Of a stretch of DNA of 64,000 nucleotides, positions 31,364 to 61,028 are shown piece by piece. The stretch lies in the IMG/VR virus record IMGVR_UViG_3300000234_000002, positions 19,958-83,957 of that record; one strand, written 5' to 3'. The stretch's first letter is position 1; every line of letters starts with the position of its first letter. The notes beneath the pieces are model-generated. The model was given only the letters and a program-made list of their open reading frames with translations, made no database searches and was not told the origin of the DNA. Both the position numbers and the translations under genes were made by a program. This DNA is from a virus.

Positions 31364-33073
31364 TTACATTGCTAAATATTTATCCCAAACACTTTCTTTG
31401 GAATCAACGATCCTGTATTCAGAATTTGAAAGAATACTTGCAACAGTTCTCGATTTCTTGTTTTTTATGGCATCAGATCGAACGTAGTTACTTTTATCTT
31501 TTTCTAAAATGTCTAATACCTCAACAGGGGTATTCGGATTTTGAGCCAATTGCAGACGAACGGAAGGTTCAGGATCTTTTGCTAATTTTTTGGATATCTC
31601 CAAAGGAAGATTTGGATTACTAGCTAAATTACCTCTAATTCCCTCATCAGAACTGTTGGCGAAATCAGAAAGAATGTGAGGTGGGGTGTTGGGATTGGAA
31701 ACAACATTTTGGATAACAATAAAATTCGTTTCTTTAGACATTTCTTCAAGTAAATGAGGAGGAGCGCTCGGGTTTTTTGAAACGAGGAAATGACTTATCG
31801 AGTCCTTATCATTTGCTAATTCTTCAAGAATGAATTGAGGAGAATTAGGATTCTCAGCTAAACTTTCGGAAAACTTTCCAGTTCCATATAAGTCAACAAG
31901 AACTTCATGAGGAGTGTTAGGATTTACTGAAGCGGCTTTTACGACTTCAATTTTGGGATCTTTAGCAAGAATTTCAAGAATATCTGAAGGAGTGTTGTGA
32001 TTATACGCGACGTTCATACGAATGACATCTTTAGAATTTTTCGATAAAATAGAAAGAACATTAGGTGGTGTTTTTCGGTTGTTTGAAATTGCTTCGTTAA
32101 CCTTATAAATGTCAAGACCAACAAGCTTTTCGAAAATATGTGGTGGAGTGTTGTGATTATAAGCAATTTTCAGAATAACATCAGGATCTTCATCATCACT
32201 CAACAACTCGAGCATATAAGGCGTTATATGCTTGCTGCGAAAGATTACGGATTTTATTTTTTCATTGTCATTCTTAACAAGGTCTTCTTGTTCTTTTTGA
32301 CTTATTGACTCTCCGGAACCAAACTTCGCAAGTGCACTCTTTGGGGCGTCTTTAGCTTTTTGATCGCAAATCGTGTCTATTTTAGAAAAACTTTCTCCTA
32401 AATATTTTGATATCGTAGATTTAGATATTTGATCATCAAGTGAACTCCAAAATATTTTTTCTTTAGTGTTGTTATCAATATCTCTCTGATAGGATATAGC
32501 GATTTTATAAAGTGGATCCGAGATATCAGATTTTTTGTTTAGTATGAAAAAGAAAACAGTATTATCGAGCTGATATTGCTCATAATAAGATTTTCCTTTC
32601 ATCGTTACACACCATTTTGAGCCTTTTCCATGAAATACTGAAGCCGCTTTGTTTTTAATCCACAAAACCTCAAAATCATCGTTTTCAAATAATTTTTCGG
32701 AATCCGGTACCTCTTCTAACTTATAACGCTTATCAGCTTTATCCTTCTTTAAACTTTTCTGTTCTTTTAATTCAAGAAGCTTATCTCTAAGTTCCGTGAA
32801 TTCGTTAACTTTATACTGATAAATATCGCGTTTGTCGAGTTTTGGACTGAACTTTTCAAAAAGTTCAACAACATCAGCAATTTCTTCCGATAAAGCTTGG
32901 TTTGAATCAAGAATCTTGAGTTCCCATTCAAGGTATTTACTTCTACCCCTAGATGGATCCCTTTCGCTGAAATACTCGATTTCCTCTTCATAATGAGGAA
33001 ATCGAGCTAATGCATCTTTCTTAGATAACGCCGCTGTTTTTATAATCAAACTAGCAATACGACTAAAATCCAT
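31364..33073 (-). CDS. GSKWC-motif domain + leucine-rich variant/HEAT-like repeat protein (paralog of 4102..5895)
   Basis: N-terminal about 270 aa closely similar to 4102..5895; NPNTP repeats; shared WDKYL C-terminus. Confidence 0.8.
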   Translation of the reverse strand: MDFSRIASLIIKTAALSKKDALARFPHYEEEIEYFSERDPSRGRSKYLEWELKILDSNQALSEEIADVVELFEKFSPKLDKRDIYQYKVNEFTELRDKLLELKEQKSLKKDKADKRYKLEEVPDSEKLFENDDFEVLWIKNKAASVFHGKGSKWCVTMKGKSYYEQYQLDNTVFFFILNKKSDISDPLYKIAISYQRDIDNNTKEKIFWSSLDDQISKSTISKYLGESFSKIDTICDQKAKDAPKSALAKFGSGESISQKEQEDLVKNDNEKIKSVIFRSKHITPYMLELLSDDEDPDVILKIAYNHNTPPHIFEKLVGLDIYKVNEAISNNRKTPPNVLSILSKNSKDVIRMNVAYNHNTPSDILEILAKDPKIEVVKAASVNPNTPHEVLVDLYGTGKFSESLAENPNSPQFILEELANDKDSISHFLVSKNPSAPPHLLEEMSKETNFIVIQNVVSNPNTPPHILSDFANSSDEGIRGNLASNPNLPLEISKKLAKDPEPSVRLQLAQNPNTPVEVLDILEKDKSNYVRSDAIKNKKSRTVASILSNSEYRIVDSKESVWDKYLAM

Positions 33074-33096: not shown

Positions 33097-34638
33097 TTAA
33101 GAAGATCTCAGAATAAAATCAGGAAGATTGCTCTGTCCCATGGAGTGTTCATACCTCACAGAAGGAGAAGCATGATTGAATGGAATATTAAGTTTTAGTC
33201 TAACATCACTTTCAACCCAATTACGAAGTTCAACTATCTGCTCAGATGATAAATGATCGGTAAAGGTATAAGACTTATATCCACCATTAGGATCACCTTT
33301 ATAATATTCAGATACTTCCGTAAAATCAACATCATAAGCGTGAAGCCTGTCACCAGTTCTTGGGCTCGTGTAAGTCCAAACGTTATCAAATTCTTGATTC
33401 TTATAAGCTTCATCATAATAAGGGGTTCCGGGATAAGTGGTGATCACGGTGCAATCAAAATCCGCAGGCTTTGACTTTATAAGCCAATCATGAACAGCAC
33501 GAATAGAGTTTTCACTCTCTCCAGCATGACCTATACTCATCAACGCTTTCACCTTTAAATCATATTTATTGGCTATATCCATAACATTATCGTTGTCTTC
33601 TACGGTTGCCCTCTTCTGTATGTTAGTCAGGATTCTGGGGTCTGCAGCTTCGAATCCGCAAAGAAGCCACCTGAAGCCAGCACGATACATCGAAGATGCC
33701 TGTTCTTCGTTAAATAACTCGGACTTAATGAAGCCTCTTAGACTAAAATCCACACCGAGTTCCGATTGCAAATCGGAAATTTTATTCATGAGGTCAACAA
33801 GACCTTTATTCACGTTGAGTTCATCATCATAAAACATGAAACCAGTATGACCATAAGTCTCGTGAAGGAATTTGATTTCTTTAATAATGCTTTCCGAGCT
33901 TCTAGTTCTTATCATTCGGAGGCTTTTTGAATTTCTCCCACCACAATAAGCACAAGCAAAAGGACAACCGAGCTGAGCAATAAGACTCGTCGACGGCTTC
34001 CCATCGATCATATATTTATAGCTTTTAGCATCAACAAGGTGTCTGGCCGGATAAGGGCTAGCTTCATATACTTCATCATCCATGAAGTATTCACCTTTAT
34101 GATCGTCAGCATCTATCAACTTAGGGGAGTCAGGTCTTAAAGCAGTAAATATTGAATATTCTCCGTCACCAGAAACTAAGACATCAACTAAATTTTGAAG
34201 TTTATCGAAAGCCCTGTGGGCTCTATCGGCTCTTTTTTGTTTGACCTCCATCTTTCTAGCTGAATCCACTAGAGTAATGTGAGGTCCGCCAAGAATGATT
34301 TTCAAATCAGGTCTAACACTTCGAATTCTTTCGATAATGAGCTTTACAGCTGGGAGCTGAGGAGTCGTGGTGGTTATTCCGATTGCTATATCATTACAAT
34401 CTTTAGTATAAGATTCCACAACGTCCAAATAATTACTAATTCCGCTCGTATCTATGACGTTTACTTTATAACCAGCGCTTTCTAACGAAGACGCGACTTT
34501 GAGAACACCGAGACTCATAAAAACTCTTTCGTCGAGTAGAAATAAAGAAGGAGGAATCAATAAAGAAACACTTTTACCCTTACCACTGTCGATTTTAATT
34601 TTACTGGAAAGAATTGGAAGAGTTAACATCAGGCCCAA
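33097..34638 (-). CDS. B12-binding radical SAM protein (class B methylase-like)
   Basis: N-terminal cobalamin-binding domain (SLGVL.VAS, IILGGPH, GDGE); GCPFACAYC; FYDD, GFEAAD, YPGTP. Confidence 0.9.
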   Translation of the reverse strand: MGLMLTLPILSSKIKIDSGKGKSVSLLIPPSLFLLDERVFMSLGVLKVASSLESAGYKVNVIDTSGISNYLDVVESYTKDCNDIAIGITTTTPQLPAVKLIIERIRSVRPDLKIILGGPHITLVDSARKMEVKQKRADRAHRAFDKLQNLVDVLVSGDGEYSIFTALRPDSPKLIDADDHKGEYFMDDEVYEASPYPARHLVDAKSYKYMIDGKPSTSLIAQLGCPFACAYCGGRNSKSLRMIRTRSSESIIKEIKFLHETYGHTGFMFYDDELNVNKGLVDLMNKISDLQSELGVDFSLRGFIKSELFNEEQASSMYRAGFRWLLCGFEAADPRILTNIQKRATVEDNDNVMDIANKYDLKVKALMSIGHAGESENSIRAVHDWLIKSKPADFDCTVITTYPGTPYYDEAYKNQEFDNVWTYTSPRTGDRLHAYDVDFTEVSEYYKGDPNGGYKSYTFTDHLSSEQIVELRNWVESDVRLKLNIPFNHASPSVRYEHSMGQSNLPDFILRSS

Positions 34639-35768
34639 CCTCTTTCTTTTTTAGCGTCAAGTACAATCTTTTCTAAATCAGAGGATATTTTTTCCCAAGT
34701 ATACTGTTTACTGAGTTCCATACCTAAATTTGAATATTTGTCTCTAGTTTCTTTATTTTTGAGAGTTTCAATTATCATATCAGAGTAGATTTTTTCTTTA
34801 CCACCGAATGGTGTCTCTATCATCTGAACACTACCGCCATATAATTCCCCTAAGGCATCTTGGTTCGTTATAATAGGGACAGTTCCAGAAGCACATGCTT
34901 CCATGATAGAAACTGAAAAACCCTCGGTATAAGACATCGTTTCACAAGGGTAAGCAAGAACTTCTGCTTTATTAAATTCTTCACGTATTCTGTTGCGACT
35001 AACAGAATCGTGCAGATGAACGTTCATTTTTGCATTTTTCTTAAAACGTTTGAAACACTCTATTATATATTTTGCTCTGTTTGAAGATTCGGCATAGGTA
35101 TAATGGTAACCAGGATTGACGTCTACGAAATGATCAAGCCAGTTTTTTATTTTGTAAAAAATATGAAGTTCTGCGTGGGGAACAGCTTCAATAACATTTG
35201 GCCATATAGAAAGTAAATTGTGAAGACCTCTGTCAGGAGAGGAAGCCCAAATCACTCTTCCAGGAATTTTGTTGCTCGTGTCATAAGAAGAAGGATCACA
35301 GCCGTTATGGAGAACTCTCCATTTATTGAAATGAGGAGTTAAAACACCGACATTTTGTCGATGTGATTCAGAAGGACTAGTCCATATATCAACAAAATCA
35401 TCATAATCAGGAAGACAATGTTCAAAAGAATTTATTTGGAGATTACAAAGCCTTATTATTTTCCAACTTATGAATCTAAGATAATTCGGTTCATTCCATG
35501 AAATTGCGAAATCATAGTTATTGCTAGTGTTAACCTGATCTTGTATGTGTTCAAGAGGAATTATATGAATACCATTCCATTCCATAGGACCATGAGTTGT
35601 ATCCATGAAAATGGATATATCATGACCCCTAGATTGGAGTACTCTTGCTATTGATATAAAAGAATATTCAGAACCGGTGAGACCTCTTGGGTTCGAATAA
35701 ATATCTTCTGAAAAATTAAATTTATATCCAGCGGTACACCAAGGACTGTAAATAAATGCAGCTTTCAT
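34629..35768 (-). CDS. GT-B (GT4-like) glycosyltransferase
   Basis: TGSE, HNG.D, WASSPDRGL, EGFSVSIMEACASG. Confidence 0.88.
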   Translation of the reverse strand: MKAAFIYSPWCTAGYKFNFSEDIYSNPRGLTGSEYSFISIARVLQSRGHDISIFMDTTHGPMEWNGIHIIPLEHIQDQVNTSNNYDFAISWNEPNYLRFISWKIIRLCNLQINSFEHCLPDYDDFVDIWTSPSESHRQNVGVLTPHFNKWRVLHNGCDPSSYDTSNKIPGRVIWASSPDRGLHNLLSIWPNVIEAVPHAELHIFYKIKNWLDHFVDVNPGYHYTYAESSNRAKYIIECFKRFKKNAKMNVHLHDSVSRNRIREEFNKAEVLAYPCETMSYTEGFSVSIMEACASGTVPIITNQDALGELYGGSVQMIETPFGGKEKIYSDMIIETLKNKETRDKYSNLGMELSKQYTWEKISSDLEKIVLDAKKERGWA

Positions 35769-36907
35769 ATATAACTCGGTAGTCCTTCTTTTCCGCGAGT
35801 CAAAATTGTCTGTTCAAGTCTATCAGTTAGAATAGACCACTCGAATTTTTCGGAATGTTTGCGACACGAATCTGACATATGAGATTTTAAAGATTCACTA
35901 TTTAATGCATGTAAAAGTTTTTCGGTATACTGAGATTTCTTTCCTTCATAAGGCGGCTCGACAAATAATGAAACGGGAGACCAAAGCTCTTTGAAGCAAT
36001 CGTCAGCGCATATGACCGGAACAGTCCCGGAAGCGCAAGCCTCAAGTATAGAAACACCAAAAGTTTCAGTGTAATGAACTGCATCTAAAGGATAAGCCAT
36101 AATCTCTGATGTAGAAATTTCTTCACGAATTCTGTTTCTACTAACAGATCCATGAGGAAAAATATTATAACCGGAAGACATTCTCTTCATTGCCTCTTTT
36201 GAATATAATGAACGCATACCGAGTTCAGTGTTCATAACACCTCTTTCGGTCTTATTATTGAAGTCTATGGCGTTACAAAAAGCATCAAGGCCACTGAAAT
36301 CATAAAAAATATGAAGGCTTGCATCAGGTACTTCAGAAATTATTCTAGGCCAAATTTCCAAAAGCCTATGTAAACCTCTATCATGAGAGGAAGCCCAAAC
36401 AACTTTGTTTTTTACTTTTTTCGATGGTTTAAAATCTTTTAAATCAACGCCATTATAACATATCTTAATTTTTTCTTTTGGAAATGAGGTATACCTCATT
36501 AAATAATCGGCGTGGGAATAAGAAAGTGGAGTTAAAATATCCACATAGTCTTCCCATCCAACAGGGCAGCTGAAAAAGTCAGAAACTTGCTGGTTGAAAA
36601 TCTTTAAAACATCATTATTAGCAAGCGCCAACGGACGAGGATCCATCCACGACAAAAGAGCGCCCCAGTCTTGCTTACAGTAAATGTCTTCCCATTCTTT
36701 ATAAGGACAAAGTGTCACACCATAAGTATTCCCGGCGTGAGGGAACCTCGAAAATAATGTTACTTCATGTCCTTTCTTAGCTAAATTTATTGCGTAAGAA
36801 AAACATGATATTTCGGATCCAGTCATACCACGACTTGAATCCCAAAGATTATTTGGGTCGAAGTCATGTCTTACGCAGAAATCAGGATAGAAAAAACCTA
36901 TTCTCAC
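35765..36907 (-). CDS. GT-B (GT4-like) glycosyltransferase
   Basis: TGSE, YNGVD, WASSHDRGL, ETFGVSILEACASG. Confidence 0.88.
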   Translation of the reverse strand: MRIGFFYPDFCVRHDFDPNNLWDSSRGMTGSEISCFSYAINLAKKGHEVTLFSRFPHAGNTYGVTLCPYKEWEDIYCKQDWGALLSWMDPRPLALANNDVLKIFNQQVSDFFSCPVGWEDYVDILTPLSYSHADYLMRYTSFPKEKIKICYNGVDLKDFKPSKKVKNKVVWASSHDRGLHRLLEIWPRIISEVPDASLHIFYDFSGLDAFCNAIDFNNKTERGVMNTELGMRSLYSKEAMKRMSSGYNIFPHGSVSRNRIREEISTSEIMAYPLDAVHYTETFGVSILEACASGTVPVICADDCFKELWSPVSLFVEPPYEGKKSQYTEKLLHALNSESLKSHMSDSCRKHSEKFEWSILTDRLEQTILTRGKEGLPSYI

Positions 36908-37863
36908 GTTTTATTCCTGCTCTCAAAAGCTTTGAGGCTAAACCAATCAAGAGTTTGTCTCATACCCTCTTCGTATGAAACTTGAGGGGACCATCCAATA
37001 AGTTCATTTATGAGACTAACATTTGGACACCTTTGTTTAGGGTCGTCTTGAAGTGGTTTCAGATTCAGTATCTTGCTCTTGTTACCATAAAATTCATTTA
37101 TATATTTGGCTATATCTAAAACAGTTCTTTCATCGGGATTTCCGATGTTTACTGCTTCTACAGGCTTTACCTTATCAGAGTTCATCAAACCATGAAGAGC
37201 CCTAACAGTATCTGATACATAACAAACACTTCTTGTCTGAAGTCCGTCACCATAAACAGTCATATCGTTACCATGAATAGCCTGCATGGTGAAATTTGGT
37301 ATCATTCTACCATCTTCCATGTCCATCTTCGGTCCATAAGTATTGAACAGACGAGCTATTCTTATGTCTGTTTTGTGAATATCATGATAACACCAAGCTA
37401 AAGATTCAGCAGCTCTTTTACCCTCGTCATAACAACTTCTAGGACCTAGAGTATTGACTCTACCGTGATATGATTCTTTTTGAGGATGGACTTCAGGGTC
37501 ACCATAAACTTCAGAAGTTGAAGTAATTAAAACTCTCGACCCATTTATCGAAGCATAGTCAAAAACATTCTGAGATCCAATAAAAGCAGTTTCCATAGTA
37601 TAAATCGGGTCTTTTTGATAATGAACAGGACTCGCAGGACAAGCGAGATGGTATATTTGATCAAATTTAACAGAAAGATTTAGTTCTCCTGAAAATCTAA
37701 TATCTCGATTAAAAAACCGGATGTCGCGAATAACATCATCAAGATTCTTTATGGAAGAACAGTATGAGTTATCAATTACATAAACAGTATCTCCATTCTC
37801 TACAAGGTGCTTAACTAAATGAGACCCAACAAAACCAGAACCGCCTGTTACCAGTATTTTCAT
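36904..37863 (-). CDS. uxs: UDP-glucuronate decarboxylase (UDP-xylose synthase)-like SDR
   Basis: TGGSGFVG, HLACPASPVHYQ, STSEVYGDP, RSCYDEGKR, NTYGP, QTRS, DDP..RCP. Confidence 0.85.
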   Translation of the reverse strand: MKILVTGGSGFVGSHLVKHLVENGDTVYVIDNSYCSSIKNLDDVIRDIRFFNRDIRFSGELNLSVKFDQIYHLACPASPVHYQKDPIYTMETAFIGSQNVFDYASINGSRVLITSTSEVYGDPEVHPQKESYHGRVNTLGPRSCYDEGKRAAESLAWCYHDIHKTDIRIARLFNTYGPKMDMEDGRMIPNFTMQAIHGNDMTVYGDGLQTRSVCYVSDTVRALHGLMNSDKVKPVEAVNIGNPDERTVLDIAKYINEFYGNKSKILNLKPLQDDPKQRCPNVSLINELIGWSPQVSYEEGMRQTLDWFSLKAFESRNKT

Positions 37864-37867
37864 GTTC

Positions 37868-40348
37868 TTATCTCTTCAGTATGGCTTTGTAAGGATGAAT
37901 TACGATTGTAGACATTTCATCGACCAAAGAATTCAGCTCTTTATCCCAAGAAATCGCCACATCGTTCCAACTAAAGTTGGACCTAGCATGATTAATGAGA
38001 TTCATTCTCTTATCATCAGAAATTGGATTTCTGAGATTTTCTATTATTGCTTTCTTATACTTCTCATTATATTCGTGAGAATTCCAGTCGCCGTGTATCA
38101 TAGTACCACGATTACCGACCGTTTCATTAAGAGCAGCCACAGGAGAAGTTATTATTTGTAGACCAGCAGCCTGGGCTTCCATCGCCGATATACAACTGGT
38201 TTCTGAGAACCAAGTCCCATAAAGCCAATGGGATGCGGACATGAAATGGGAGGCTAATATTTCTTGTGAAACTCTGCCATGATAGAAAACATTTTTAGTG
38301 TTGTTAAGAAGATTCTTTAAGTGGCCTATATAAGAAATTTGACTTTGATCGTTAACGAGCTTCGCGCTCATTTCCCAATTTTCAAAACCGTAGAAAACGT
38401 GAAGCTCAGCATCAGGAACTTCGTCTACGACGTTACCCCAAACATTGAGCAAAGACAAAAGACCTCTGTCTGGGCTTGAACTATAGATAGCTTTATTTTT
38501 GTTTTTCTTGATTTCAGAAAACTCTTTATCATTAAAACGATCGAAGTTTATCCCGTTTTTTGTTACGTGAACTTTATCCTCATGGAGATATTTATAATTC
38601 TCCAAGAAGAAACCCTTGTGCCAGTTAGATAGGGTCAAGAACCTATCAATTTTCAGGGACCTTGCATAGTTCAGTTCATCCCCACAATGAATGTCATGAA
38701 CCCAGCAAAGGTTAACTTTAGACTTCAGTCCAAGATGCTCATCAAAAATGTGAGGGCGACGAGAAGAAATCATAATATCACACTCAACGTTTGCAAAATT
38801 TGAATAATCAGTGTATTGGACACCATCGAAAGTGCCCTCTAATCCATAACAGTCGCCATAAACTCTAACACTATGGCCCATGCTTACGAGCCTAGTTGAC
38901 ATCTCTATTAAAGCAATTTCGCTTCCACCGTTACCCTTTTCTTTAACAGTTTCAGGATTCCACTTTTCATAACTATGACCAACAAAGAAAACTATATCTC
39001 TTTTTCTGTCGGTCTTGTAAGTGAAATCGTTGAGTGGAACAAGTTTTTCCACATCAACATTTTTTACGACTGGAGTAACAACACTAATATCATTACTTTC
39101 TTTTTCGATAATAGAAAGTATTCTGTTGAAATCCGATTTTGTTAAATGACCAACTTCAACAAGTTTGTTTAATGGATCGTTAAGCTTGATTTTGCTTAAA
39201 TGAGTTGTATATATTTTCCGATTCAAAATTAGAGATTGATCATCAGGAACGGTAGAAATAGCTCTATTGACACTTTCTAAAGCTTCCTCAACTTTCCCTA
39301 ACTTATTTAGTGCAAAGTTATAATATTTTTGTATATCATATTCTCTATCAAGAGGATTAACAAATAAAATAGTTTTTGTTGGCGGTAAATCCAAACCCTT
39401 TTTGATAAATCTTACACACTTCGTCCAAAGTTCATTTTGAATTCTTAGATCAGATTGACTTTGGGCTTTAAAATAAAAACACTTTCCTATTGCAAAAAGT
39501 GGCTCACCCCAGTCATCTTTAGTGGAATGAGCCAAAAGAGCCCATTTCAAAGAAGAATCGGTATCGCCCTTAGAAAGATAATGACGAGCAAGCTCCATGC
39601 ACGAGAGACATTTCTCATCATCCCATCCAGAAAGAGCTACGTATTTTTCATGAAATTTAATGGAGTTATCAATATCATTGATATTCCCGTATTCGAGACC
39701 TAGATAATAAAGCTGCCGAACGTCAGAATCACCAACTTTATCATAATTCGATTTCAGAATCCTGAGATTCCTGTTTTTTTCTACAGGTTTTAGATTCAAA
39801 TCACGCTTATGAACAATAACACACTCTTTGGATTCATGAAGATGATCTAAAGGTTTTATTGGAACCAAAACTTCATGAACAGCGCCTTGCCATTCAAAAT
39901 GAGAAGCCGGACTAACTAATCTTTCTCTGTAATGATAACAAGTCACATTCCCGTTATGGTCGTGTGAGTACTCATATGGGAACATTATCATGCAATTTTT
40001 ATTATATTTAATATTCGTTACTAAATCATAAAGTTTCTCAGCCCCATAAACCTCATCATCACCATCTATCCACATAACCCAAGGTTGTGTGGCTAAGCTA
40101 AAACTTCTCTGTCTAGCGTTAGAAAAAGACTGAATTTTACCATCAGAGTCGTTACAATCCAGATAAGTTTCAAACTTATCAGCATACTTTGAAACTATTT
40201 CTAAAGTTCTGTCTACAGAACCAGTATCAACAACGCATATTTCAGCAACATGTGGTCTGATAGATCTTAAACAATCTTCTATTTGAGCTTCTTCATTTTT
40301 TACTATAAGACAGACCGATATAGGGGCAACTTTATTCATGCATAACAC
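37868..40348 (-). CDS. GT2 + TPR + GT4 fused glycosyltransferase
   Basis: IVKNE..VDTGSVD..FSNAR..WIDGDD (GT2); TPR-like helices; GGSE..SSPDRGL..ETSCISAMEAQAAG (GT4). Confidence 0.9.
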   Translation of the reverse strand: MLCMNKVAPISVCLIVKNEEAQIEDCLRSIRPHVAEICVVDTGSVDRTLEIVSKYADKFETYLDCNDSDGKIQSFSNARQRSFSLATQPWVMWIDGDDEVYGAEKLYDLVTNIKYNKNCMIMFPYEYSHDHNGNVTCYHYRERLVSPASHFEWQGAVHEVLVPIKPLDHLHESKECVIVHKRDLNLKPVEKNRNLRILKSNYDKVGDSDVRQLYYLGLEYGNINDIDNSIKFHEKYVALSGWDDEKCLSCMELARHYLSKGDTDSSLKWALLAHSTKDDWGEPLFAIGKCFYFKAQSQSDLRIQNELWTKCVRFIKKGLDLPPTKTILFVNPLDREYDIQKYYNFALNKLGKVEEALESVNRAISTVPDDQSLILNRKIYTTHLSKIKLNDPLNKLVEVGHLTKSDFNRILSIIEKESNDISVVTPVVKNVDVEKLVPLNDFTYKTDRKRDIVFFVGHSYEKWNPETVKEKGNGGSEIALIEMSTRLVSMGHSVRVYGDCYGLEGTFDGVQYTDYSNFANVECDIMISSRRPHIFDEHLGLKSKVNLCWVHDIHCGDELNYARSLKIDRFLTLSNWHKGFFLENYKYLHEDKVHVTKNGINFDRFNDKEFSEIKKNKNKAIYSSSPDRGLLSLLNVWGNVVDEVPDAELHVFYGFENWEMSAKLVNDQSQISYIGHLKNLLNNTKNVFYHGRVSQEILASHFMSASHWLYGTWFSETSCISAMEAQAAGLQIITSPVAALNETVGNRGTMIHGDWNSHEYNEKYKKAIIENLRNPISDDKRMNLINHARSNFSWNDVAISWDKELNSLVDEMSTIVIHPYKAILKR

Positions 40349-40364
40349 TACCAGAAACGATAAA

Positions 40365-41339
40365 TCAAGTTAAATACTGTCTGAAGCACATAAACCAACC
40401 AGAAAAAGTCCCAGCTCCCGTGGAAACCTTTTCAACAGAAACTCTTATCTTCCATCTATTATGGAAGTAATCAGCTTTATAAGTTTCTATGTCAAGCATT
40501 CCTATTTGGCTTCCGAGAGGAATATTTTTAATATAAGAAACACTTAGAGGGATGTTCAGTAAATGCCAGTCAGTCCCCCGAACAGAATTAGGAGTAACAG
40601 CGCCAGTTGCGAAGTCAACATTCCAAAAACCATCACCATTTGTAGGAGCTGGGACAGCTGTAGATAAATTCAGATCATGAGTTCCATTATTGTTAGTAGC
40701 TGGCATAATGACGCTATATCCATAACCAGTATCCAAAAGATTTACATTTCCCGTGTTAGAACCATTTAAAACAGGAGAGTTTGCAGGTATAATGGAAGAA
40801 AGAGTGAATTTATCTCTTGAATCCCAATTTTCAACTGGATACCATTGAGCTTGACAATCGTGAATCAATATTGGCTCAATAAATTCCATTTCCATATATT
40901 TGACTTCAGGAACAGTAAATTCTAAATAAACAGGAGTTCCTTCACCTCTCCCAGAAGCAGGAGGTGTTGGGTTCTTATTATCACCAGCCCCGGTGAAATA
41001 AGTTCTCCAATAAAAAGGAGCCGGATTTATTACGATGTTTGGTCGATTATCAAATTCAGAAGGAGCATCAAGTTTGAAGTTGAAAGTTGGCCTTAGGGCG
41101 TTGCCTCTGTGAGCAGCCACTATATTATTTAAATTAGTTACTTCATCATTAGGTAAAGCGTTTTTAAACCAAACTGTAAAAGTTTGAAGAGTGTTATTGA
41201 CATCGATTCTGTCCATTACGATAGTGAAATCAGAAAAACCATAATTTCGAGAATACATTATTTGATTTTCAAATCTGTCAAAGTCAAACTTTCCAGTTTG
41301 GGTTTGAGAAAAATTGAATAAGTAAGAGGTTAGCGCCAT
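40365..41339 (-). CDS. Putative virion structural protein
   Basis: 324-aa beta-rich ORF in the fibre operon. Confidence 0.55.
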   Translation of the reverse strand: MALTSYLFNFSQTQTGKFDFDRFENQIMYSRNYGFSDFTIVMDRIDVNNTLQTFTVWFKNALPNDEVTNLNNIVAAHRGNALRPTFNFKLDAPSEFDNRPNIVINPAPFYWRTYFTGAGDNKNPTPPASGRGEGTPVYLEFTVPEVKYMEMEFIEPILIHDCQAQWYPVENWDSRDKFTLSSIIPANSPVLNGSNTGNVNLLDTGYGYSVIMPATNNNGTHDLNLSTAVPAPTNGDGFWNVDFATGAVTPNSVRGTDWHLLNIPLSVSYIKNIPLGSQIGMLDIETYKADYFHNRWKIRVSVEKVSTGAGTFSGWFMCFRQYLT

Positions 41340-42044
41340 TTAAAATGAAAATCCAAAAAAAATTGAATTGAAATTGTTACCGGATGGAGAGTAGTTTTCG
41401 TCAAGGATTTCAGTTATAGAATGAGCCTGAGCGGTTGAAGAACCGAAAGTCCAACTCATACTAGTAGTTTGAGGTGTTGAAATATTTTTTGAACTGACCA
41501 TAAATCTTGTGCCGCTACTAAAAGAGTCATTAATTTCAGTTTGACCTCCACCAGGGGTTGCAGCGGAAGCTGAGTCATTTGCACAAAGACAATCAACTAA
41601 AACAGAATTTGAACCTATTGTTGTTATATCAGTTGAATAAGAAGAAACAGTGTTGTTATCTGAAAAATTAGTTCCTACTGAACCGAGTGAAATTTGATAA
41701 ACACCACTATACACTAAAACTAAAGCTTCCCATGAGTAAAGGGATCCACCACCCGTAAAAGTCCATGAAAGATTATAACTTCCAGTAGATGAAGGTAAAC
41801 TAGCATCTGGTAACCAGAAAACAGCAGATCTAGTTCTATTACTAAAAGAAACAGCGGTAGCGCTAGGACCAATATTCATAGACACACCATTATACGATGT
41901 GGAACCAAATACTAAAGTCCCAGAACCAATACTCTTAAGTATAGCTACTAAAAATCTATTAGAACCTGAAGCAACAGATAAATTATGAGAAAAACCAGCA
42001 GAAAATCCCGTAAAATAATCACTGTCAAGTTGAGTTATTGTCAT
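41340..42044 (-). CDS. Putative virion surface/fibre-tip protein, Ser/Thr/Gly-rich
   Basis: 234-aa beta-rich ORF abutting a collagen gene. Confidence 0.55.
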   Translation of the reverse strand: MTITQLDSDYFTGFSAGFSHNLSVASGSNRFLVAILKSIGSGTLVFGSTSYNGVSMNIGPSATAVSFSNRTRSAVFWLPDASLPSSTGSYNLSWTFTGGGSLYSWEALVLVYSGVYQISLGSVGTNFSDNNTVSSYSTDITTIGSNSVLVDCLCANDSASAATPGGGQTEINDSFSSGTRFMVSSKNISTPQTTSMSWTFGSSTAQAHSITEILDENYSPSGNNFNSIFFGFSF

Positions 42045-42045
42045 T

Positions 42046-44889
42046 TTATGAAAAATTCAAAGTACCAACACCATAATAAAGTGAACCGTTATAATAAAAA
42101 GTAACTATATGGACAGTATTAGCGGCAGTGTTTACAGCAGGAGAAGAACCTCCAGGCCATCGAACAGTAGAAGGCCAGTTTACAGTCCTTCCGCCAGTAG
42201 CATCTTGAACTAAACGAAGCAAAAGGTTTGAAACTCCGGTTGTTGGAGCGGTAAATATTAAAGTAGAAGCAGTTCCCGTTAAAGTAACAGCTTGCCTCAA
42301 GCCGTTATTCCAGTTAATGGTAGCAGTAGCACCACTGTTACCATTAATGAATTCTTGATCAAAACCTATTGTTTTGACGTTGGATATTTGACCTTGGTCG
42401 TTTACAGTTACAGTAGAGCTGGTTATATTTCTACCATTTGTTCCAGAAAAACGAGCTATAGAATTGTTAATAGCAGTACCGGGACCTATAACAGCAGTAG
42501 GACTTACGGGACCGGTGGGTCCCTGAGGACCAGTAGCACCAGCTGGACCGGTTGGTCCAGCAGGACCGCCAGAAGGTCCTGTGGCTCCAGTAGCGCCATC
42601 AGCTCCTCTAGGAGAAAAAGCAACAAATTTCTGGTTTAGAATTTCAGGGAATCTACCAGAGTTATAAGGTCTTCTCCATTCAACATATAAAGTATGGACT
42701 CCAGCAGAAAGTCTTCTACTTTCAAAATTATTTACAATTTCTGGTTGACCAGAAATAACATTAACGAAGCCTTGAACAGGACTTCCACGATCGTTATCAA
42801 AAACTATCCTGAATTCCGCTACGGCACCAGTATTTCCAGTGCCAACTCTTGATGAAGCAAAAACAGAAGCATTGTATATAGCGAGTAAATCTGTTGATTG
42901 AGTTAAATTGAAATTCAAATAAGAACTTGGAACAGGGATAAATGTTGCCGATGTTGCTATCGGACCAGAGTTGGTCGCAAAAGAAGCAACACTCGTCGAG
43001 ACCAAAGTAAAAATAAGAGGACCAGGAACAACACCAGCTAAGCCTTGAGGACCAGTTACCCCTTGAGCGCCAGTGGGTCCAACGGGACCAGTGTCACCAC
43101 GAGGGCCAGTTGGGCCTTGAGCACCGGTAGTTCCTGGGCCAGTTACACCTTGCGAACCAGTTGGACCAATAAGACCTGGAGAACCTTGGATACCTTGCGG
43201 GCCAATAATTCCTGTATCCCCACGGGGACCAGTGGCACCTTGGGGACCAGTTACACCCTGTATTCCTTGAACACCGGTAGCGCCCTGTGGTCCAGTGGAT
43301 CCTATAGGACCCGTGTCACCACGAGGACCCGTTAAACCAGGGGAGCCTTGGGGTCCTGTGTTTCCTATAGGACCAATAGGACCAGTTATACCCTGCGGTC
43401 CAGTTTGTCCTTGTAATCCAGTAGCACCCTGGAGACCTATTTGTCCAGTTGGTCCCTGAATACCTTGGGGTCCAATTTGACCTGTGGGTCCGACAGCTCC
43501 GGTAGTGCCTTGGAGGCCAGTCGAACCTTGTATACCTGTAGCACCTTGAGGTCCTGTGACACCTTGTATACCTGTGACACCCTGTATACCAGTGGCACCT
43601 TGTGGCCCGATTGGACCTGTAGCTCCAGTATTGCCACGGGGACCTGTATCACCTCTTGGGCCAGTATCTCCTTGAATTCCTGTGTTACCACGAGGTCCGG
43701 TGATGCCTTGTATACCAGTTGGGCCCTGTGGTCCCGTATCACCTCTAGGGCCAGTTTGGCCCTGTGGTCCCGTAGAACCCTGAGGTCCAATTTGTCCGGT
43801 TTGACCTTGAGGACCAGTGACACCAGGAGATCCTGTCTGTCCCTGCGGGCCAATCTGTCCTGTCGACCCTTGGATACCGGTGGCGCCTTGGGGGCCTTGG
43901 GGGCCTGTAGGACCTTGGGGGCCGGTTGGTCCCACAATGCCTTGTGAACCTGTATCACCACGAGGACCAGTTTGTCCTTGAATACCAGTAGGACCTTGAA
44001 TACCCTGAGGACCGGTATCACCTCTTGGTCCTGTTGGACCCTGAAGACCTTGTGGGCCTGTGGGACCTTGAACACCAGTGACTCCAGTTGCACCTTGAAG
44101 CCCAGTGTTACCACGAGGACCTGTGTCGCCTTGTGGACCTGTGTTTCCTCTGGGTCCAGTATCACCACGTGGACCAGTAACACCTTGAGGTCCAGTTGAC
44201 CCTGCTATGCCGTTAAGACCGGTTGCACCCTGTGGTCCTGTTGCTCCTGTTGGTCCTTGAATACCAGTATCACCTCTTGGTCCGGTAAAGCCTGTTACTC
44301 CCGGAAGACCCGTAGGGCCTTGGATACCTTGGATACCTGTAGGACCAATTTGTCCTGTGGCGCCCTGAATACCAGTAGCACCCTGCGGTCCCTGATTTCC
44401 AGTTGCGCCTTGTGGTCCTATGGGACCCTGAATTCCAGTGGCTCCCTGTAAACCAGTAGAACCGCGAGGCCCTGTATCGCCGCGTGGACCCGTCTGTCCT
44501 TGAATACCGGTGTCACCACGCGGTCCAGTTGAGCCGGTGGCTCCTTGAGGCCCTATAGGACCAGTTGCGCCTTGAGGACCTATTGGAAAACCAGTTAGTC
44601 CGAATACACTCTCATTAAGTATTTTAAGTTCATGATAAAGGTCAAAAGCTTCTTGAACAGTTTGATCTGTTACATTTCTTACTAAGACTAAATTATTGTT
44701 ACCTATGTTTTGATTAAATACAGCAATGTTATCATAAACTATTTGAAAATCGATACCAGGCTGTTCATCATAATCAACAGTATCCCATATCAATAAAGAA
44801 GATGCGGGGGATATTGATAAAACACCAAAGTTTATGGTAGAAACCGAATCGTTTCTTAAATAGACTTTTATGTTTATTAAGGAACTCAT
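42046..44889 (-). CDS. Collagen-like fibre protein B
   Basis: About 520 aa of Gly-X-Y between an N-terminal LLIWDT domain and C-terminal globular domains (..[20 protein letters not shown]..). Confidence 0.92.
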
Positions 44890-44897
44890 AGTTTTCC

Positions 44898-46523
44898 TTA
44901 AAAATCAGTTTCAATATAAACTGATGAAATATCAAGACCAACAGCTAAAGCAGTCTGATTGTTTGTTCTCCAAGAGTTGTAGGTTAAAAGGGTTGTTGGT
45001 GCAGGATAAGCAACACCAGTTGCTCCAGTTATAGAGCCAGCAACAGATATCCCAGCATTCAAACGAGAAACTTCCCAATGAATAATCCCACCGATCGGTG
45101 GAGCAAAAATGGAAAGTTCATAAAAATCAGTTGATAAGGTTCTTGCGGGATAATTCACACCTAAATCAATTGCTGGTTGAGCAGAAGATCCACCATAATA
45201 AAACGATAAATTACTTCCTGAAACTCCGTGACCAACACCTATGCAATTTGTTAAAGTTGAAGGATCAACATTAGCTGGAGCACTCGTGCTGCTAGACATC
45301 CCAATAAACATTCGAGCGCCAGTAACGGTAGCAGCATCTGAAACACCAAACCTAGTTATCATATGAAAACCACCCAAAATAACAGAAGTTGCAGTGGGAA
45401 TAGGACCGGCTCCAACAGTATATTGCCTAGCCGCAAACCTTAAATGAGCCATCGATCCAGGAGTGGTTGCCGAAATATAACCAATTCTTTTCATGCGTGT
45501 GAAAAAATTGGTAGTAGCAATATTTCTTGCGTTCGCAGTACCGGAAGTGTTTGCAGCTAAAAGACCAAATACTGCAGGAACTGTAGTTGAATTTCCTAAA
45601 GCATTCCAGAAACCAACTTTATTTCGAGCTAAAAATGGCTGAACCTTCGTATCCTGACCTGCAGGGCCAACGAAAGTTAGCATGTTACGATTTGAAATCG
45701 GACTGGCAAAAATACCGCAATATAAAGAAGGAATATGTCCAAATGAAGTTGATAAAGGCATTTTTATAACATTTTGATCAATCACAAAATTTGAAGTTCC
45801 AGCATTTTCACCAGTAGTCCCAGTGTAAACCATTATAACGCCAGCAGATGGAACGAACGGAGCAGGACCTCTCATAGCACCAGAAGCAGAACCAGGTAGT
45901 CCCTGAGGACCTACGGCACCAGTCGCTCCTTGAGGACCTGTTGTCCCAACACCAGTAGCGCCCTGAGGTCCTGTATTACCTCTTGGTCCGGTGTCTCCTT
46001 GAATTCCTGTGTCACCACGAGGGCCAGTTGGGCCTTGAGCACCAGTAGAACCAATTCCAGAGGGACCTGTCGATCCCTGTGCACCCTGTGGCCCGGTAGC
46101 TCCTGTATTACCACGAGGACCAGTAGCACCCTGTGGTCCAGTAGACCCGGCACTTCCACTGGCAACACGAGGGTCGGAGCTTGATATTGACTGACCAGGA
46201 CCAGTTCCTATATTTGGGAACGAAAATTGTCTTAAAAATAAATACTGTTCATAGGCAGAATTTATTAGTAAATAAGTGTCGAAACCATCAGAAGCATTTT
46301 GATCAACAGAGTTTCTTTCTATAATTACGAGGCTTGAATTTAAGTTGGTCTGGAAAGTTCCAACGTTATTCCTAACTTGTTCGAAATTTACAATACAAGT
46401 TGGGTCGAAATTTATAGTATCCCAAATAAGAGAGCTACTCCCGTTTGGTATAGAAAGAGACCCATAATTTATAACACCACCAGAAACGTTCCTTAAAAGG
46501 ATAGACAAACCAAGAGCACTCAT
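44898..46523 (-). CDS. Collagen-like fibre protein C (short collagen, large C-terminal domain)
   Basis: N-terminal domain paralogous to 42046..44889; about 90 aa Gly-X-Y; C-terminal beta-sandwich-like region. Confidence 0.88.
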
Positions 46524-49500
46524 CTCTCCTCCAAAGTCAAAGTTATGAAAGCATTACGCATCTGCCCAGCTATGCTAGCTCCAGTTCCATTCGTAAATTT
46601 AAGGCCCAATAAAACACCAGAATCAACATCAATACTCAAGTTCACTGAACCAGTGAAATTCGTATTTCCAACACTGAAAGTACCAACAATAAAAGAGTTA
46701 CTAATAGAGAAGTCAACATTTCCTAAAAATGTTGAAGCTGTAAAGCCTATTGTATCAAGGTCAGTTTCAAATGAAACTGGATAAGTGACTGTCGAATTTT
46801 GAACACCGACACCTCTAACAGTTAATACTGCTCTTGTTATGGTAGCATTGAATGGAACTTGATAAGGCGAGCAAGAACTCGGGTTTGATATCCCAGAAGC
46901 AGATCCACTCCGTTTATTTCCAGGTGTGTCGCCGCCGGAACCTCTCCAAGTCAAAAAATAAACTGAAGTGTTATAGACATCTTCATCCATAACAAATTCG
47001 ACAGTCGCAAATCTTTTAACAACACCTGAAGGGCCTGTGGGACCAATAGACCCCGTTAGACCCTGGATACCTGTGGCTCCTTGTAAACCTGTAACTCCCT
47101 GAGGACCAGTGTTTCCTCTTGGTCCCGTATCACCACGTGGACCAGTGGGTCCCGTAACGCCTTGAATTCCTTGAATTCCTGTGGCGCCTTGTATTCCTTG
47201 TGAACCAGTTGCACCTTGTGGCCCGATTGGACCAGTAGCCCCCGTATTGCCTCTAGGGCCAGTATCACCACGGGGGCCTGTTTGACCTTGAGGACCTGTG
47301 TCTCCACGTGGGCCGGTAGGTCCAACGGGACCAGTGTCACCTCTTGGGCCTGTGGCTCCAGTTATGCCATTAACACCAGTTGCCCCCTGAGGACCAGTTG
47401 GGCCTTGTATTCCCGTATTGCCTCGGGGACCTGTGTCACCACGCGGTCCTGTATCCCCTCTTAAACCCGTAAACCCCTGAGGACCAGTATCACCACGTGG
47501 ACCAGTCGGGCCTTGAGCACCAGTTGATCCAATTACGCCCGGAAGACCTGTGGCGCCCTGTATTCCCTGGGGGCCTGTGGATCCAATTGGGCCAGTTGAA
47601 CCTTGTGGACCAGTGATACCAGGAGATCCTGTCGGACCGATAGGTCCTTGAATACCAGTGTCACCTCTCGGGCCCGTGAAACCCTGAGGGCCTGTATCAC
47701 CACGGGGTCCGGTCGGACCAGTTGGTCCTTGTAAACCAGTAGCGCCTTGTGGACCAGTCGGGCCGACGGGACCTGTGGTTCCGGTTCCGGCTCCAGCGGG
47801 ACCCTGTGGGCCTGTAGCACCAGTTACACCCTGGGGGCCAGTGGCACCCTGTGGTCCTGTGATACCGGGAGATCCTTGGGGACCAGTTATGCCCGGTGAA
47901 CCTTGTGGTCCAGTTACACCAGTATTTCCACGGGGACCCGTATCACCGCGTGGACCAGTCTGCCCCTGAGGTCCGGTTACACCTTGTATACCTTGAATGC
48001 CAGTAGCACCAATGGGACCAGTTACACCAGGGGAACCCTGTGGTCCAGTTGAACCTTGTGCACCAGTAAGACCCTGTGGCCCGGTAGCTCCTGTATTACC
48101 ACGAGGACCAGTATCACCACGGGATCCGGTTTGACCTTGTGGTCCCGTTACACCTTGAGGGCCAGTGGGACCAATTAACCCTGTGGCACCCTGAGTTCCT
48201 GTGGCACCTTGTGCACCAGTTGATCCAGTTTGTCCTTGTGGACCTTGGACTCCGGTGGCACCCTGAAGCCCGGTGGCACCTTGTGCACCAGTAGCTCCAA
48301 TAGAGCCCGTTACACCTTGAGTTCCTGTGGCTCCTTGGGGACCAGTAGGACCTTGAGGCCCTGTGGCTCCTTGGGGACCAGTAGGACCTTGTACACCAGT
48401 ATTACCACGTGGTCCTGTATCCCCTCGGGGGCCGGTTTGACCTTGTGGGCCTGTGGCACCCTGGGGACCCGTTGAGCCAGTAGAACCTTGGGGACCAATA
48501 GAGCCAGTAGAACCCTGTGGGCCAGTTACACCCTGAATGCCTTGAACACCGGTAGACCCTTGAACACCGGTAGACCCTTGTGCACCTTGAAGACCCGTAG
48601 CGCCTTGAGGACCGGTTACTCCCTGTGGTCCTTGAACACCAGTTGACCCTTGGGGACCTGTAGAACCTTGAACACCCTGGGGACCAGTAGCGCCTGTTGT
48701 TCCAGGAAGTCCTGTGGCGCCCTGAACACCGGTATTTCCTCTTGGACCAGTATCACCTCTGGGACCCGTCTGCCCTTGAATGCCAGTGGGGCCTTGCAAT
48801 CCAGTGGCACCAATAAGACCAGTGTCTCCTCTAGGCCCAGTAGTACCTTGGGGACCAGTGGGGCCTACAACACCTTGGGGACCAGTAGCACCTTGGGGAC
48901 CAGTTGGGCCTATTGATCCTGTTTCACCACGGGGACCTGTAGAACCAGTGGCACCTTGGGGACCAGCTATTCCTGTAGCGCCTTGGGGGCCGGTTACACC
49001 AGGGGACCCTTGGGGGCCTATAAAACCTTGCGCTCCCGTATTTCCACGAGGACCAGTGTCACCTCTTGGACCAGTTGACCCTTGTGGACCTGTGGAACCT
49101 TGGATACCAGTAGCTCCTTGAACTCCGGTGGCACCCTGAATTCCCTGAATCCCAGTGGCTCCCTGTGGACCAGTATTGCCACGTGGACCCGTTGGACCAG
49201 TGGGACCTTGTATACCCTGTGGACCTGTGGACCCCTGTGGACCTGTGGAACCTATTGAGCCCTGTATACCAGTCGGGCCTTGTAAACCCGTAACTCCCTG
49301 TGGGCCAGTTACACCAGGGGAACCCTGTGGTCCAGTATGTCCTATAGGGCCTGTTGGACCAGTAACTCCAGTAGGTCCTTGAGGGCCAGTGAAACCGATA
49401 GAACCAGTTGGTCCTTGTGGACCCTGAATACCAGTAGCTCCTTGGGGTCCTTGGAGACCGGTGGCTCCTTGAGTTCCTTGGGGACCGGTAGTACCTGGAG

Positions 49501-50632
49501 AGCCCTGAGGACCAGTCGGACCTTGTATACCAGTTGATCCGCGTGGGCCGGTGGGACCTGCTGGACCTGTGGCGCCAGGAGAACCCTGGGGACCTGTTGG
49601 GCCTTGTGAACCAGTTGGCCCTGGTAAACCTGGGGGACCAGCAGGACCAGCAGGACCAGTTAGACCCTGAGAACCAGTTAGACCCTGAGAACCAGGGGAG
49701 CCTTGGAAACCTTGGATACCCTGTGGACCCTGAATACCTTGAGGTCCAGTAGGTCCTAGAGGGCCTGTTGACCCTGTGACTCCCTGAATGCCAGTTGAAC
49801 CACGTGGGCCAGTATCACCGCGTGGGCCGGTTTGACCTTGTGGGCCGGTTGGACCTGTTGGTCCAATAAGACCTGTGACGCCTTGTAAACCTATAGAACC
49901 GGTATGCCCGATAGGACCAGTCGGACCTTGTATTCCGGTGGCGCCTTGTAAACCCGTAGCTCCTTGAGGTCCAGTTACACCAGGAGATCCCTGGGGACCC
50001 GTTACACCAGGAGATCCCTGGGGACCCGTAGATCCTGTAACACCAGTCGCACCACGAGGACCTGTGGCACCTTGGGGACCCGTTACGCCAGGGGAACCTT
50101 GGGGACCCGTAACTCCCTGAATTCCCGTTGGTCCTTGGACACCTGTGGCACCCTGGGGACCAGTAATACCAATAGAACCTGTATGACCTCGGGGACCGGT
50201 TGGGCCAGTTGGGCCGATTTGCCCAGTATTACCACGAGGTCCAGTGAAACCTATTAAACCTTGTGGGCCTGTAACACCAATAGAACCAGTAATACCCTGT
50301 GGACCAATTTGCCCAGTGGGACCTTGAATACCTTGTGGGCCTGTGGGACCGCGAGGTCCCGTTAGACCTTGAAGCCCTTGTATACCTTGGGGACCCTGAG
50401 GGCCAGTATTACCGCGAGGGCCAGTAAGACCTTGTGCACCCTGAACGCCAGTGGCACCCTGAACACCTTGTGCACCAGTAGGACCAATTACACCTTGTTG
50501 ACCCTGGGGACCAGTTGGCCCGAATGAACCTATAAGACCTTGGGGACCGGTAGGTCCAATAGGACCGGTAGGTCCTTGCGGACCAGTCGGACCAGTAGAG
50601 CTTCTTCTGGTTCCTACCGGATTATCTATCAT
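46520..50632 (-). CDS. Collagen-like fibre protein A, about 1190 aa of Gly-X-Y
   Basis: [18 protein letters not shown] repeats from residue ~13; about 165-aa C-terminal globular domain. Confidence 0.93.
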
Positions 50633-53397: not shown

Positions 53398-53415
53398 GAT
53401 TAACTCCTATTCAGA

Positions 53416-53967: not shown

Positions 53968-53999
53968 GTGTTCTCCTTATGTTAAAATCTAATTAAAAT

Positions 54000-54638: not shown

Positions 54639-54655
54639 ATAATATAGAAGACTTA

Positions 54656-55072: not shown

Positions 55073-55075
55073 GAT

Positions 55076-56406: not shown

Positions 56407-56413
56407 AAATCAA

Positions 56414-57415: not shown

Positions 57416-57429
57416 AAATAACATTACCG

Positions 57430-57472
57430 AAGTTTTAAGTGCATTTAACTGGTGAAAATGCACTTAAAACTT
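57430..57472. terminator. Inverted repeat, probable terminator
   Basis: AAGTTTTAAGTGCATTT / AAATGCACTTAAAACTT 17-bp arms just after collagen D. Confidence 0.65.
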
Positions 57473-60176: not shown

Positions 60177-60923
60177 TCAAAATGAAGATACGTAAAAAGA
60201 ATGCGAAACTGAATGATATGGGACAGTTCCAATTTCAGTATAATTGTGAGATAAAACTATGGATCTAACCTCTTTGTCAATATTTGGATCCTTGAAAAGA
60301 TGATTTTCGACCAAAATATTCGGACGAAGTTCCGTTAGGATTTTTGAACTCCTCCTGAAAACAGCAGCTTCGGCACCTTCTACGTCCATTTTAACCCAAT
60401 ACTGTCTTGGTTGAGAATTGAAAAGATGAGGATATTGAGATTTAATATCCTCATAGACCGAATCCATCGAGCGAACCCGAATTATATCACCGGTTAGATC
60501 CCCATCATAACTCTCAAAAAACTCTTGGGAATTGGTATTGAGGTACCCATCTTTGTCGTAAACACCCTCATTAAATACTTTGACCTTTTCTGACCATCCG
60601 TTTAGTTTTAAACCAGATTCAACAATTTCCATCTCAGACAGTTTGAGATTTTCACCACCAAAACAATCATTTCCAAACTGAGGGGACCAAGCAAAGCAAA
60701 ATTCCGCACCACATGCTAGGGCTGCGAAGGTATACGAACCATAAGCCGCCCCTATATCAAACACAATATCTCCTGGATTTATGTTCCAGAACATATTGCG
60801 TACTTCACCCTCATCAATGTGAGACCACCAAGAGGCATTGGAACCACCATTATTTTGGTGTCCTTCCACACATGATACTTTATACTCATTACCTTTGTGA
60901 GAAAAAACTCTTGTGGAAAGCAT
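60177..60923 (-). CDS. FkbM-family SAM-dependent methyltransferase
   Basis: VFDIGAAYGSY, VKMDVEGAE..V, RPNILVE.H; likely start at 60923 (GGTAATGT-N4-ATG). Confidence 0.85.
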   Translation of the reverse strand: MLSTRVFSHKGNEYKVSCVEGHQNNGGSNASWWSHIDEGEVRNMFWNINPGDIVFDIGAAYGSYTFAALACGAEFCFAWSPQFGNDCFGGENLKLSEMEIVESGLKLNGWSEKVKVFNEGVYDKDGYLNTNSQEFFESYDGDLTGDIIRVRSMDSVYEDIKSQYPHLFNSQPRQYWVKMDVEGAEAAVFRRSSKILTELRPNILVENHLFKDPNIDKEVRSIVLSHNYTEIGTVPYHSVSHSFYVSSF

Positions 60924-61028
60924 ATAAACATTACCAATGTATAATGTCACATAAATATAGAGTAGAGCGCCAGTCGAAAAATCATTATATTCTTCCGAAA
61001 ATCAAGGACAAGAAAGAACACTAGGGAA

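Follow-up and report, generated by a model that had tools for sequence, protein, structure and literature searches.

A run of collagen-like fibre genes and predicted glycan-building enzymes in an uncultured phage

The window analysed here, 64,000 nucleotides long, comprises bases 19958-83957 of the 84-kb IMG/VR record IMGVR_UViG_3300000234_000002, the completeness of which is judged to be ~20%. Within it lies a minus-strand gene run (33097-50632), in which adjacent genes are separated by gaps of only -10 to +25 nt and in which a scan for promoters and terminators found no clear boundary. The run contains three genes for collagen-like fibre proteins, a three-part glycosyltransferase (GT) composed of a GT2 domain, tetratricopeptide repeats (TPR) and a GT4 domain (GT2-TPR-GT4), a short-chain dehydrogenase/reductase (SDR) resembling UDP-xylose synthase (UXS), two further GT4 enzymes (GT4a and GT4b) and a B12-binding radical S-adenosylmethionine (SAM) enzyme (Table 1). 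A fourth collagen and an FkbM-family methyltransferase are encoded 7-10 kb upstream of the main run. This gene content had been recognised in a first-pass annotation made from the sequence alone, and all of these genes were found where it had placed them. The two genes that it called putative structural genes also exist as open reading frames, but little speaks for that label. The reading that we favour, and hold to be rather probable on present sequence evidence, is that these late genes of an uncultured huge phage form a module for long fibres with collagen stalks, to which O-glycans would probably be added in the cytoplasm of the host, either ahead of assembly or in the course of it.

Table 1. 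Coordinates of the genes of the run and of the two associated upstream genes, numbered along the window
Feature	Coordinates	Strand	Evidence
Collagen-like fibre protein, 1370 aa	46520..50632	-	Pfam Collagen E 7e-181
Collagen-like fibre protein, 541 aa	44898..46523	-	Pfam Collagen E 4e-11
Collagen-like fibre protein, 947 aa	42046..44889	-	Pfam Collagen E 2e-81
Ser/Thr-rich 234-aa protein, no assigned family	41340..42044	-	no Pfam/PHROG/NCBIfam match
324-aa protein, no detectable relatives	40365..41339	-	no Pfam/PHROG/NCBIfam match
GT2-TPR-GT4 three-part glycosyltransferase, 826 aa	37868..40348	-	Pfam
SDR, predicted UDP-glucuronate decarboxylase (UDP-xylose synthase, UXS)	36904..37863	-	human UXS1 E 4e-89
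GT4b, GT4-family glycosyltransferase	35765..36907	-	Glycos_transf_1 29.9 bits (cut-off 26.4)
GT4a, GT4-family glycosyltransferase	34629..35768	-	Glycos_transf_1 36.7 bits (cut-off 26.4)
B12-binding radical SAM enzyme	33097..34638	-	Pfam Radical_SAM + B12-binding above cut-off
Fourth collagen-like protein, 313 aa	57488..58429	-	Pfam Collagen E 6e-28
FkbM-family methyltransferase	60177..60950	-	PF05050 40.0 bits + TIGR01444 41.7 bits, above cut-off

The collagen-like fibre proteins

All four collagens score above the cut-off of PF01391 and contain long unbroken Gly-X-Y runs, the longest of which extends over 312 triplets; a repeat search found degenerate collagen repeats only. The 1370-aa protein has 397 triplets, predicting a triple helix of ~340 nm, with 179 Thr residues in the Y position and zero Lys, and it ends in a 165-aa C-terminal tip domain that is 58-68% identical to part of non-collagen fibre proteins. 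The AlphaFold2 model of this tip domain (predicted local distance difference test score, pLDDT, 49) is unusable. The 541-aa protein consists of a short stalk of 29 triplets (~25 nm) plus a 328-aa C-terminal domain, and its match to phrog_5073, annotated as 'tail fiber', extends past the collagen part. The 947-aa protein combines 183 triplets (~157 nm) with an internal non-collagen domain and a C-terminal domain, and its non-collagen part has relatives in two of the related viral loci described below (L012 and L019). An 85-aa N-terminal domain is common to the 947-aa and 541-aa proteins (37% identity), and the same domain heads the non-collagen fibre proteins that bear the tip domain of the 1370-aa protein. 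Such mosaic sharing of domains suggests a pattern like that of tail fibres.

The composition of the Gly-X-Y regions is highly skewed. In the three collagens of the run 34-38% of X positions are Pro, which is nearly limited to this position, while Y is Thr in 38-45%, Gln in 28-32% and Arg in 8-10% of triplets, in agreement with the first-pass description of Y as dominated by Thr and Gln/Arg. The fourth collagen, with 62 triplets, has a Thr/Gln-rich Y like the other three. The collagen regions contain zero Lys and just 4-8% charged residues, so that Thr and Ser would be the sole hydroxyl sites.

The three-part glycosyltransferase and its partner enzymes

The three-part enzyme likely starts at the ATG at 40339, which gives a protein of 823 aa. 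The AlphaFold2 model of the 826-aa form (pLDDT 88) consists of a GT-A domain (residues 1-180), directly followed by a TPR domain (helices 190-413, also matched by TPR profiles), a disordered linker and a GT-B domain (448-810). The GT2 domain matches PF00535 with E 3e-16 and its DGDD motif (the Asp-x-Asp metal site) is invariant in 26 homologues, while the GT-B half scores 30.6 bits in the GT4 Pfam family (cut-off 26.4) and has its EX7E motif at 716-724. Compared with solved structures, a profile of the 26 homologues matches GmaR (3e-28), SunS (6e-16) and the ThuS entry 7msk (1e-10) as nearest relatives of the N-terminal half, and its C-terminal half matches GT4 enzymes. GmaR, SunS and ThuS are all protein or peptide glycosyltransferases, and this kinship suggests that the first-pass annotation was right to invoke GT2-TPR enzymes as protein glycosylators. 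Foldseek matches were to OGT and SPINDLY (the top ones), SunS and ThuS. OGT and SPINDLY likewise have a TPR array ahead of a GT-B catalytic domain, but with a TM-score of 0.25-0.3, a root-mean-square deviation of ~20 Å and a GT-B half that scores as GT4 and not as GT41 the resemblance is one of layout only.

The TPR domain shows a further, weaker affinity. Ten of the 26 homologues weakly match PF23558, the collagen-peptide-binding TPR domain of animal prolyl 4-hydroxylase, and four match PF23557 (leprecan), while the window's own enzyme has no match to the prolyl 4-hydroxylase TPR domain. A profile match to cartilage-associated protein also turned up, and weak TPR matches of the prolyl-hydroxylase/leprecan type include L062:9461-11071. 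Intein and LAGLIDADG domains are present in several homologues of the three-part enzyme, and also in one of the B12 radical SAM enzyme (P0042, P0064, P0084-P0086, P0089, P0094 and P0095; L010:6284-8857), although sugar-pathway enzymes seem an unusual place for inteins.

The closest tested system is that of Clostridioides difficile: its SgtA, which consists of a GT-A domain and TPR and is encoded beside bclA3, was shown in vitro to attach beta-O-GlcNAc to the Thr residues of GPT collagen repeats (Aubry et al., 2020; PMC7157674). It is for this reason that we propose that the GT2-TPR half would start O-glycans on collagen Thr. As in the phage, a GT-A domain is followed by TPR and the gene lies beside a collagen gene (Gly-Pro-Thr-rich in C. 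difficile), and further sugars are added to BclA3 by other enzymes, for which role partner transferases are present in the phage run too. In contrast to the phage enzyme, SgtA is a stand-alone protein of 358 aa which acts at a bacterial spore surface and uses UDP-GlcNAc, whereas the phage protein carries a fused GT4 domain and is accompanied by UXS, two GT4 enzymes, the radical SAM enzyme and FkbM; the likeness is thus one of layout and not of compared sequences. GmaR of Listeria monocytogenes, an O-GlcNAc transferase of flagellin (PMC9638930) and the best solved sequence relative, also has a GT domain followed by TPR and acts on a filament protein, but it has an anti-repressor domain instead of GT4, and its acceptor is flagellin rather than collagen.

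How would the sugars be supplied? The SDR matches human UXS1 far better than the next SDR family (E 3e-33; Table 1), and its STSEVYGDP and YDEGK motifs and a conserved Arg, which we take to be the catalytic residues of UXS1, align with that enzyme. We therefore regard its assignment as a UDP-glucuronate decarboxylase, a predicted maker of UDP-xylose, as solid, in line with the first-pass annotation. No gene for UDP-glucose dehydrogenase is present on the 84-kb fragment. In both of the UXS-bearing genomes that were searched such a gene adjoins the sugar island (L011:19627-20952; G003:C1:198610-199161), and a complete relative lacking UXS also lacks the dehydrogenase, which suggests a phage-encoded two-step route to UDP-xylose. 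Orthologues of GT4b (46-53% identity) come after UXS in L010, L011, L013 and L021, while among the partners of the three-part enzyme GT4a is conserved most broadly, its homologues being present in 49 related loci. In relatives the enzyme is followed by a cassette of a cupin, a TylC3-type sugar C-methyltransferase, an SDR and a GFO/IDH/MocA oxidoreductase, often with FkbM, and a subset has UXS and GT4b in place of, or besides, this cassette. A stand-alone response-regulator receiver domain protein was also seen in the sugar island of several relatives (L014:16757-17167; cluster c8 in L019, L022, L024 and L025).

The radical SAM enzyme scores 37.7 bits with PF02310 and 66.6 bits with PF04055, and has its CxxxCxxC motif as CPFACAYC at residue 225. 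Among solved structures it is closest to AprD4, which modifies sugars (E 9e-15), and orthologues are found in L015, L016, L021 and L010. It fits no named subfamily, since its NCBIfam matches (HpnJ, PhpK, BchE, AprD4 and others) are far under the cut-offs, and it probably modifies a sugar, by C-methylation or deoxygenation. The FkbM methyltransferase probably belongs to this pathway too, as an O-methyltransferase of sugars. Nine related loci have an FkbM homologue, mostly within the sugar island, which makes a methylated glycan plausible. The radical SAM enzyme also weakly matches peptide-maturation models, and this, together with the presence of SunS and ThuS among the nearest solved relatives, would be expected if the GT2-TPR half and the radical SAM enzyme matured a small glycosylated peptide of the glycocin type. 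We find this hardly credible, as genes for a precursor peptide, a leader peptidase or an exporter were not seen in the run and the conserved neighbours of the family are virion genes.

Linkage to collagen genes and candidate acceptors

Scans of viral contigs with single proteins gave nothing for the three-part enzyme and one weak locus for UXS, and the 80 related viral loci were collected with the family alignment instead. The family has ~700 homologues at ~50% identity, on contigs of up to 445 kb, some of them with inteins or a fused methyltransferase. A scan of ~185,000 prokaryotic species genomes returned just 12 matches, all on metagenome-bin contigs from scattered phyla, with no cultured host, while GenBank phages contain three full-length relatives at 29% identity. 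The family therefore looks to be restricted to phages.

Counting as a collagen gene any with at least 25 triplets within 10 kb of the GT locus, 27 of the 80 viral loci have one. Among close full-length relatives with a usable upstream flank, Thr-rich collagens lie at most 10 kb upstream on the same strand in 13 of 16 cases and downstream in none, against a chance expectation of ~15% (the share of sequence within 10 kb of collagens, as estimated from three complete genomes). One of the remaining three has giant collagens ~20 kb downstream. In five related genomes, three of them complete, collagens are found at one to four sites each and the largest always adjoin the island; in the three complete genomes all GT2 matches and six of the eight GT1-family matches fall into this single island beside the largest collagens. 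Among distant relatives (22-30% identity) the pairing recurs in other arrangements, some with collagen immediately downstream. Four stand-alone GT2-TPR proteins of 290-300 aa also adjoin collagens, in which Y is up to 98% Thr, and two of the four genes overlap the end of the Gly-X-Thr collagen gene. In a quick midpoint-rooted tree of GT2 domains collagen adjacency appears in at least six separate lineages with varied gene orders. The co-occurrence of the GT cluster with Thr-rich collagens across phages, which the first-pass annotation had raised, is supported by these comparisons.

What would be the acceptor then? In small phages a homologue is found directly after the major capsid gene, and three ~40-kb phage records have the enzyme with no collagen on the record. 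Two of these (G007 and G008) have direct terminal repeats and CheckV completeness of 70% and 60%, respectively, and the third (G009) is linear, at 92%, and carries GT4a, radical SAM and FkbM partners too. In the ~42-kb phages of loci L018 (which has an integrase) and L026 (records G007 and G008) the GT island is flanked by replication genes on one side and by the terminase gene on the other. Homologues next to the capsid gene, and phages with the enzymes and no collagen, would be expected if the island glycosylated other virion proteins, such as capsid, sheath or decoration proteins, with the collagens mere neighbours in the late region. Published glycosylation of phage virions also concerns capsid and tail tube: in mycobacteriophages, phage-encoded GTs have been tied to O-glycans on virion proteins (Freeman et al., 2023, as cited in PMC12619734), although there, unlike for the target proposed here, the acceptors are the C-termini of capsid and tail-tube proteins, and the cited account describes neither collagen nor a GT2-TPR-GT4 fusion. 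We nevertheless judge this alternative unlikely, because collagen adjacency is found in several lineages and gene orders, including GT2-TPR genes overlapping the end of a collagen gene, and because SgtA provides a precedent on GPT repeats (PMC7157674).

Phage GTs encoded near tail-fibre genes are usually read as altering either the sugars of the host surface or the phage DNA (PMC7029224, PMC10202952, PMC12619734). In the first case the enzymes would remodel host surface polysaccharide or lipopolysaccharide and thereby block superinfection, as published for pelagimyophages (PMC7029224). Polysaccharide loci typically contain GT4 enzymes and UXS, and two of the three phages with no collagen on their records look temperate and carry an integrase. 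This possibility seems to us quite unlikely for the present run, the enzyme genes of which share one tight run with fibre genes: no transmembrane segments were found in its enzymes, all of which are soluble, it contains no membrane protein, flippase, polymerase or initiating phosphotransferase, and the nearest solved relatives of the key domain act on proteins or peptides. Glycosylation of DNA bases for evasion of restriction is the classic role of phage GTs (as cited in PMC12619734), and Mom-like domains are present in this phage. Since genes for base hydroxymethylation are absent nearby, and since a multi-domain layout with TPR and a link to collagen or capsid genes are unlike known DNA glucosyltransferases, we consider such a role very improbable.

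Several observations weigh against glycosylation of the collagen fibres, a reading drawn from comparison. The close synteny among relatives is partly inherited and so not independent evidence, and the small phages which have the enzyme set but no collagen indicate that collagen is not the only possible acceptor of the family. We rejected the Thr content of Y as a test of glycosylation. Collagens distant from the sugar island in the same genomes are equally Thr/Gln-rich in Y and such positions are the norm for viral collagens (PMC3368898), hence a Thr-rich Y does not mark collagens linked to GTs; a recombinant collagen of an E. coli prophage, moreover, folds without sugar (PMC3368898). Nor, on present data, can the system be called self-contained, as the first-pass annotation had it, given that UDP-glucose dehydrogenase is missing from the 84-kb fragment although UXS-bearing relatives encode one. 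What stands of that annotation's virion glycosylation reading is the linkage of GT islands to collagens, the kinship with protein GTs, the UXS and the placement of FkbM in islands; its self-sufficiency is not borne out by present data, and a Thr-rich Y is no marker of the linkage.

The phage, its other genes and a proposed pathway

The three-part GT is found letter-for-letter identical on a 322-kb contig, and the phage genome should therefore be at least 322 kb in size. Near-identical DNA is contained in biofilm and soil metagenome runs; no RNA run is listed among the sequencing runs matching this DNA, and megablast of the region against GenBank phages gave zero matches. A contractile tail is indicated by a tail sheath gene of 1683 aa (11501-16552, minus strand). 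Only the final 350 residues of its product match the sheath family, and in its middle a helical, His-rich motif of the FNLHLxQxGxH type is repeated five or six times. The G+C content of this gene, 49% against a background of 36%, makes it stand out as a G+C-rich stretch at 12-16 kb, which was considered as a collagen candidate and rejected, as the sequence is that of the giant sheath gene.

Of the two run genes without a family assignment, the 234-aa protein is modelled as a beta-sandwich (pLDDT 0.82, ESM Atlas) and belongs to a large, mostly viral family, with an ESM Atlas feature score of 0.97 to clusters whose members are 82-93% viral; a role in binding or as an accessory of the fibres is possible. 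For the 324-aa protein ESM Atlas gave no relatives and the model is of low confidence. Directly after the radical SAM gene lies a gene for a 569-aa leucine-rich-repeat-variant/HEAT repeat protein (31364-33073, minus strand), which is not kept in relatives, and a gene between the collagen clusters (55076-56017, minus strand) specifies an acidic protein of 313 aa that has a SWIM zinc finger. A PHROG scan of ten genes in 52582-63692 gave faint or unrelated matches only, two of them at E ~0.003 and one, at the far end, to an RNA-ligase family.

For O-glycosylation of the collagen fibres we propose the following sequence of events, in which we infer the acceptor, the order of the steps, the sugar identities beyond the supply of xylose, and any role in stability, shielding or adsorption. 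The TPR of the GT2-TPR half would hold unfolded or trimeric Gly-X-Thr repeats while the first sugar is placed onto Thr hydroxyls, as SgtA does on BclA3. The fused GT4 domain, GT4a and GT4b would then lengthen the glycan, with UXS making UDP-xylose from UDP-glucuronate, which on present data would be supplied by the host. Finally, the B12 radical SAM enzyme and the FkbM methyltransferase would alter the sugars.

Two further systems bear comparison with this scheme. BclA of Bacillus anthracis has Gly-X-Thr repeats, O-linked sugars that include methylated residues and sugar-nucleotide genes nearby; unlike the phage fibres it forms a bacterial spore nap with rhamnose and anthrose chemistry, and the 340-nm stalk of the phage is much longer than the collagen region of BclA. 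That this region carries oligosaccharide side chains is stated in the title of Daubenspeck et al. (2004), cited in PMC9614988. In giant viruses, mimivirus L230, which acts on collagen, and PBCV-1 A064R are examples of soluble virus-encoded multi-domain transferases, which include GT-GT-methyltransferase fusions, and virus-made nucleotide sugars are converted into methylated or xylose-containing glycans on virion proteins, as would be the case in the phage (PMC9614988). In contrast to the phage, these viruses infect eukaryotes, L230 acts via hydroxylysine, while there is zero Lys in the collagen regions here, and A064R makes N-glycans of the capsid (PMC9614988).

We found no report of glycosylated phage collagen fibres in the literature. 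A broader proposal, which we hold with somewhat less than even conviction, is that O-glycosylation of Gly-X-Thr collagen by SgtA-like GT2-TPR enzymes would be widespread in tailed phages, having arisen or persisted in many lineages. In huge phages it would have grown into whole islands, the products of which would decorate fibres that measure hundreds of nm with glycans containing xylose and bearing C- and O-methyl groups, a counterpart in bacterial viruses of the fibril glycans of giant viruses. The TPR, in turn, may clamp collagen peptides and be akin to the corresponding domain of animal prolyl hydroxylases. Glycosylation of the fibres lends itself to direct test with the SgtA peptide assay (PMC7157674). 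If phage GTs do coat the fibres, this would yield a simple pair of enzyme and substrate with which glycosylated recombinant collagens could be made. It would also give a function to a family of ~700 phage proteins and mean that the adsorption organelles of many environmental phages are glycoproteins, which would change models of host range, fibre stability, enzyme resistance and antibody recognition.

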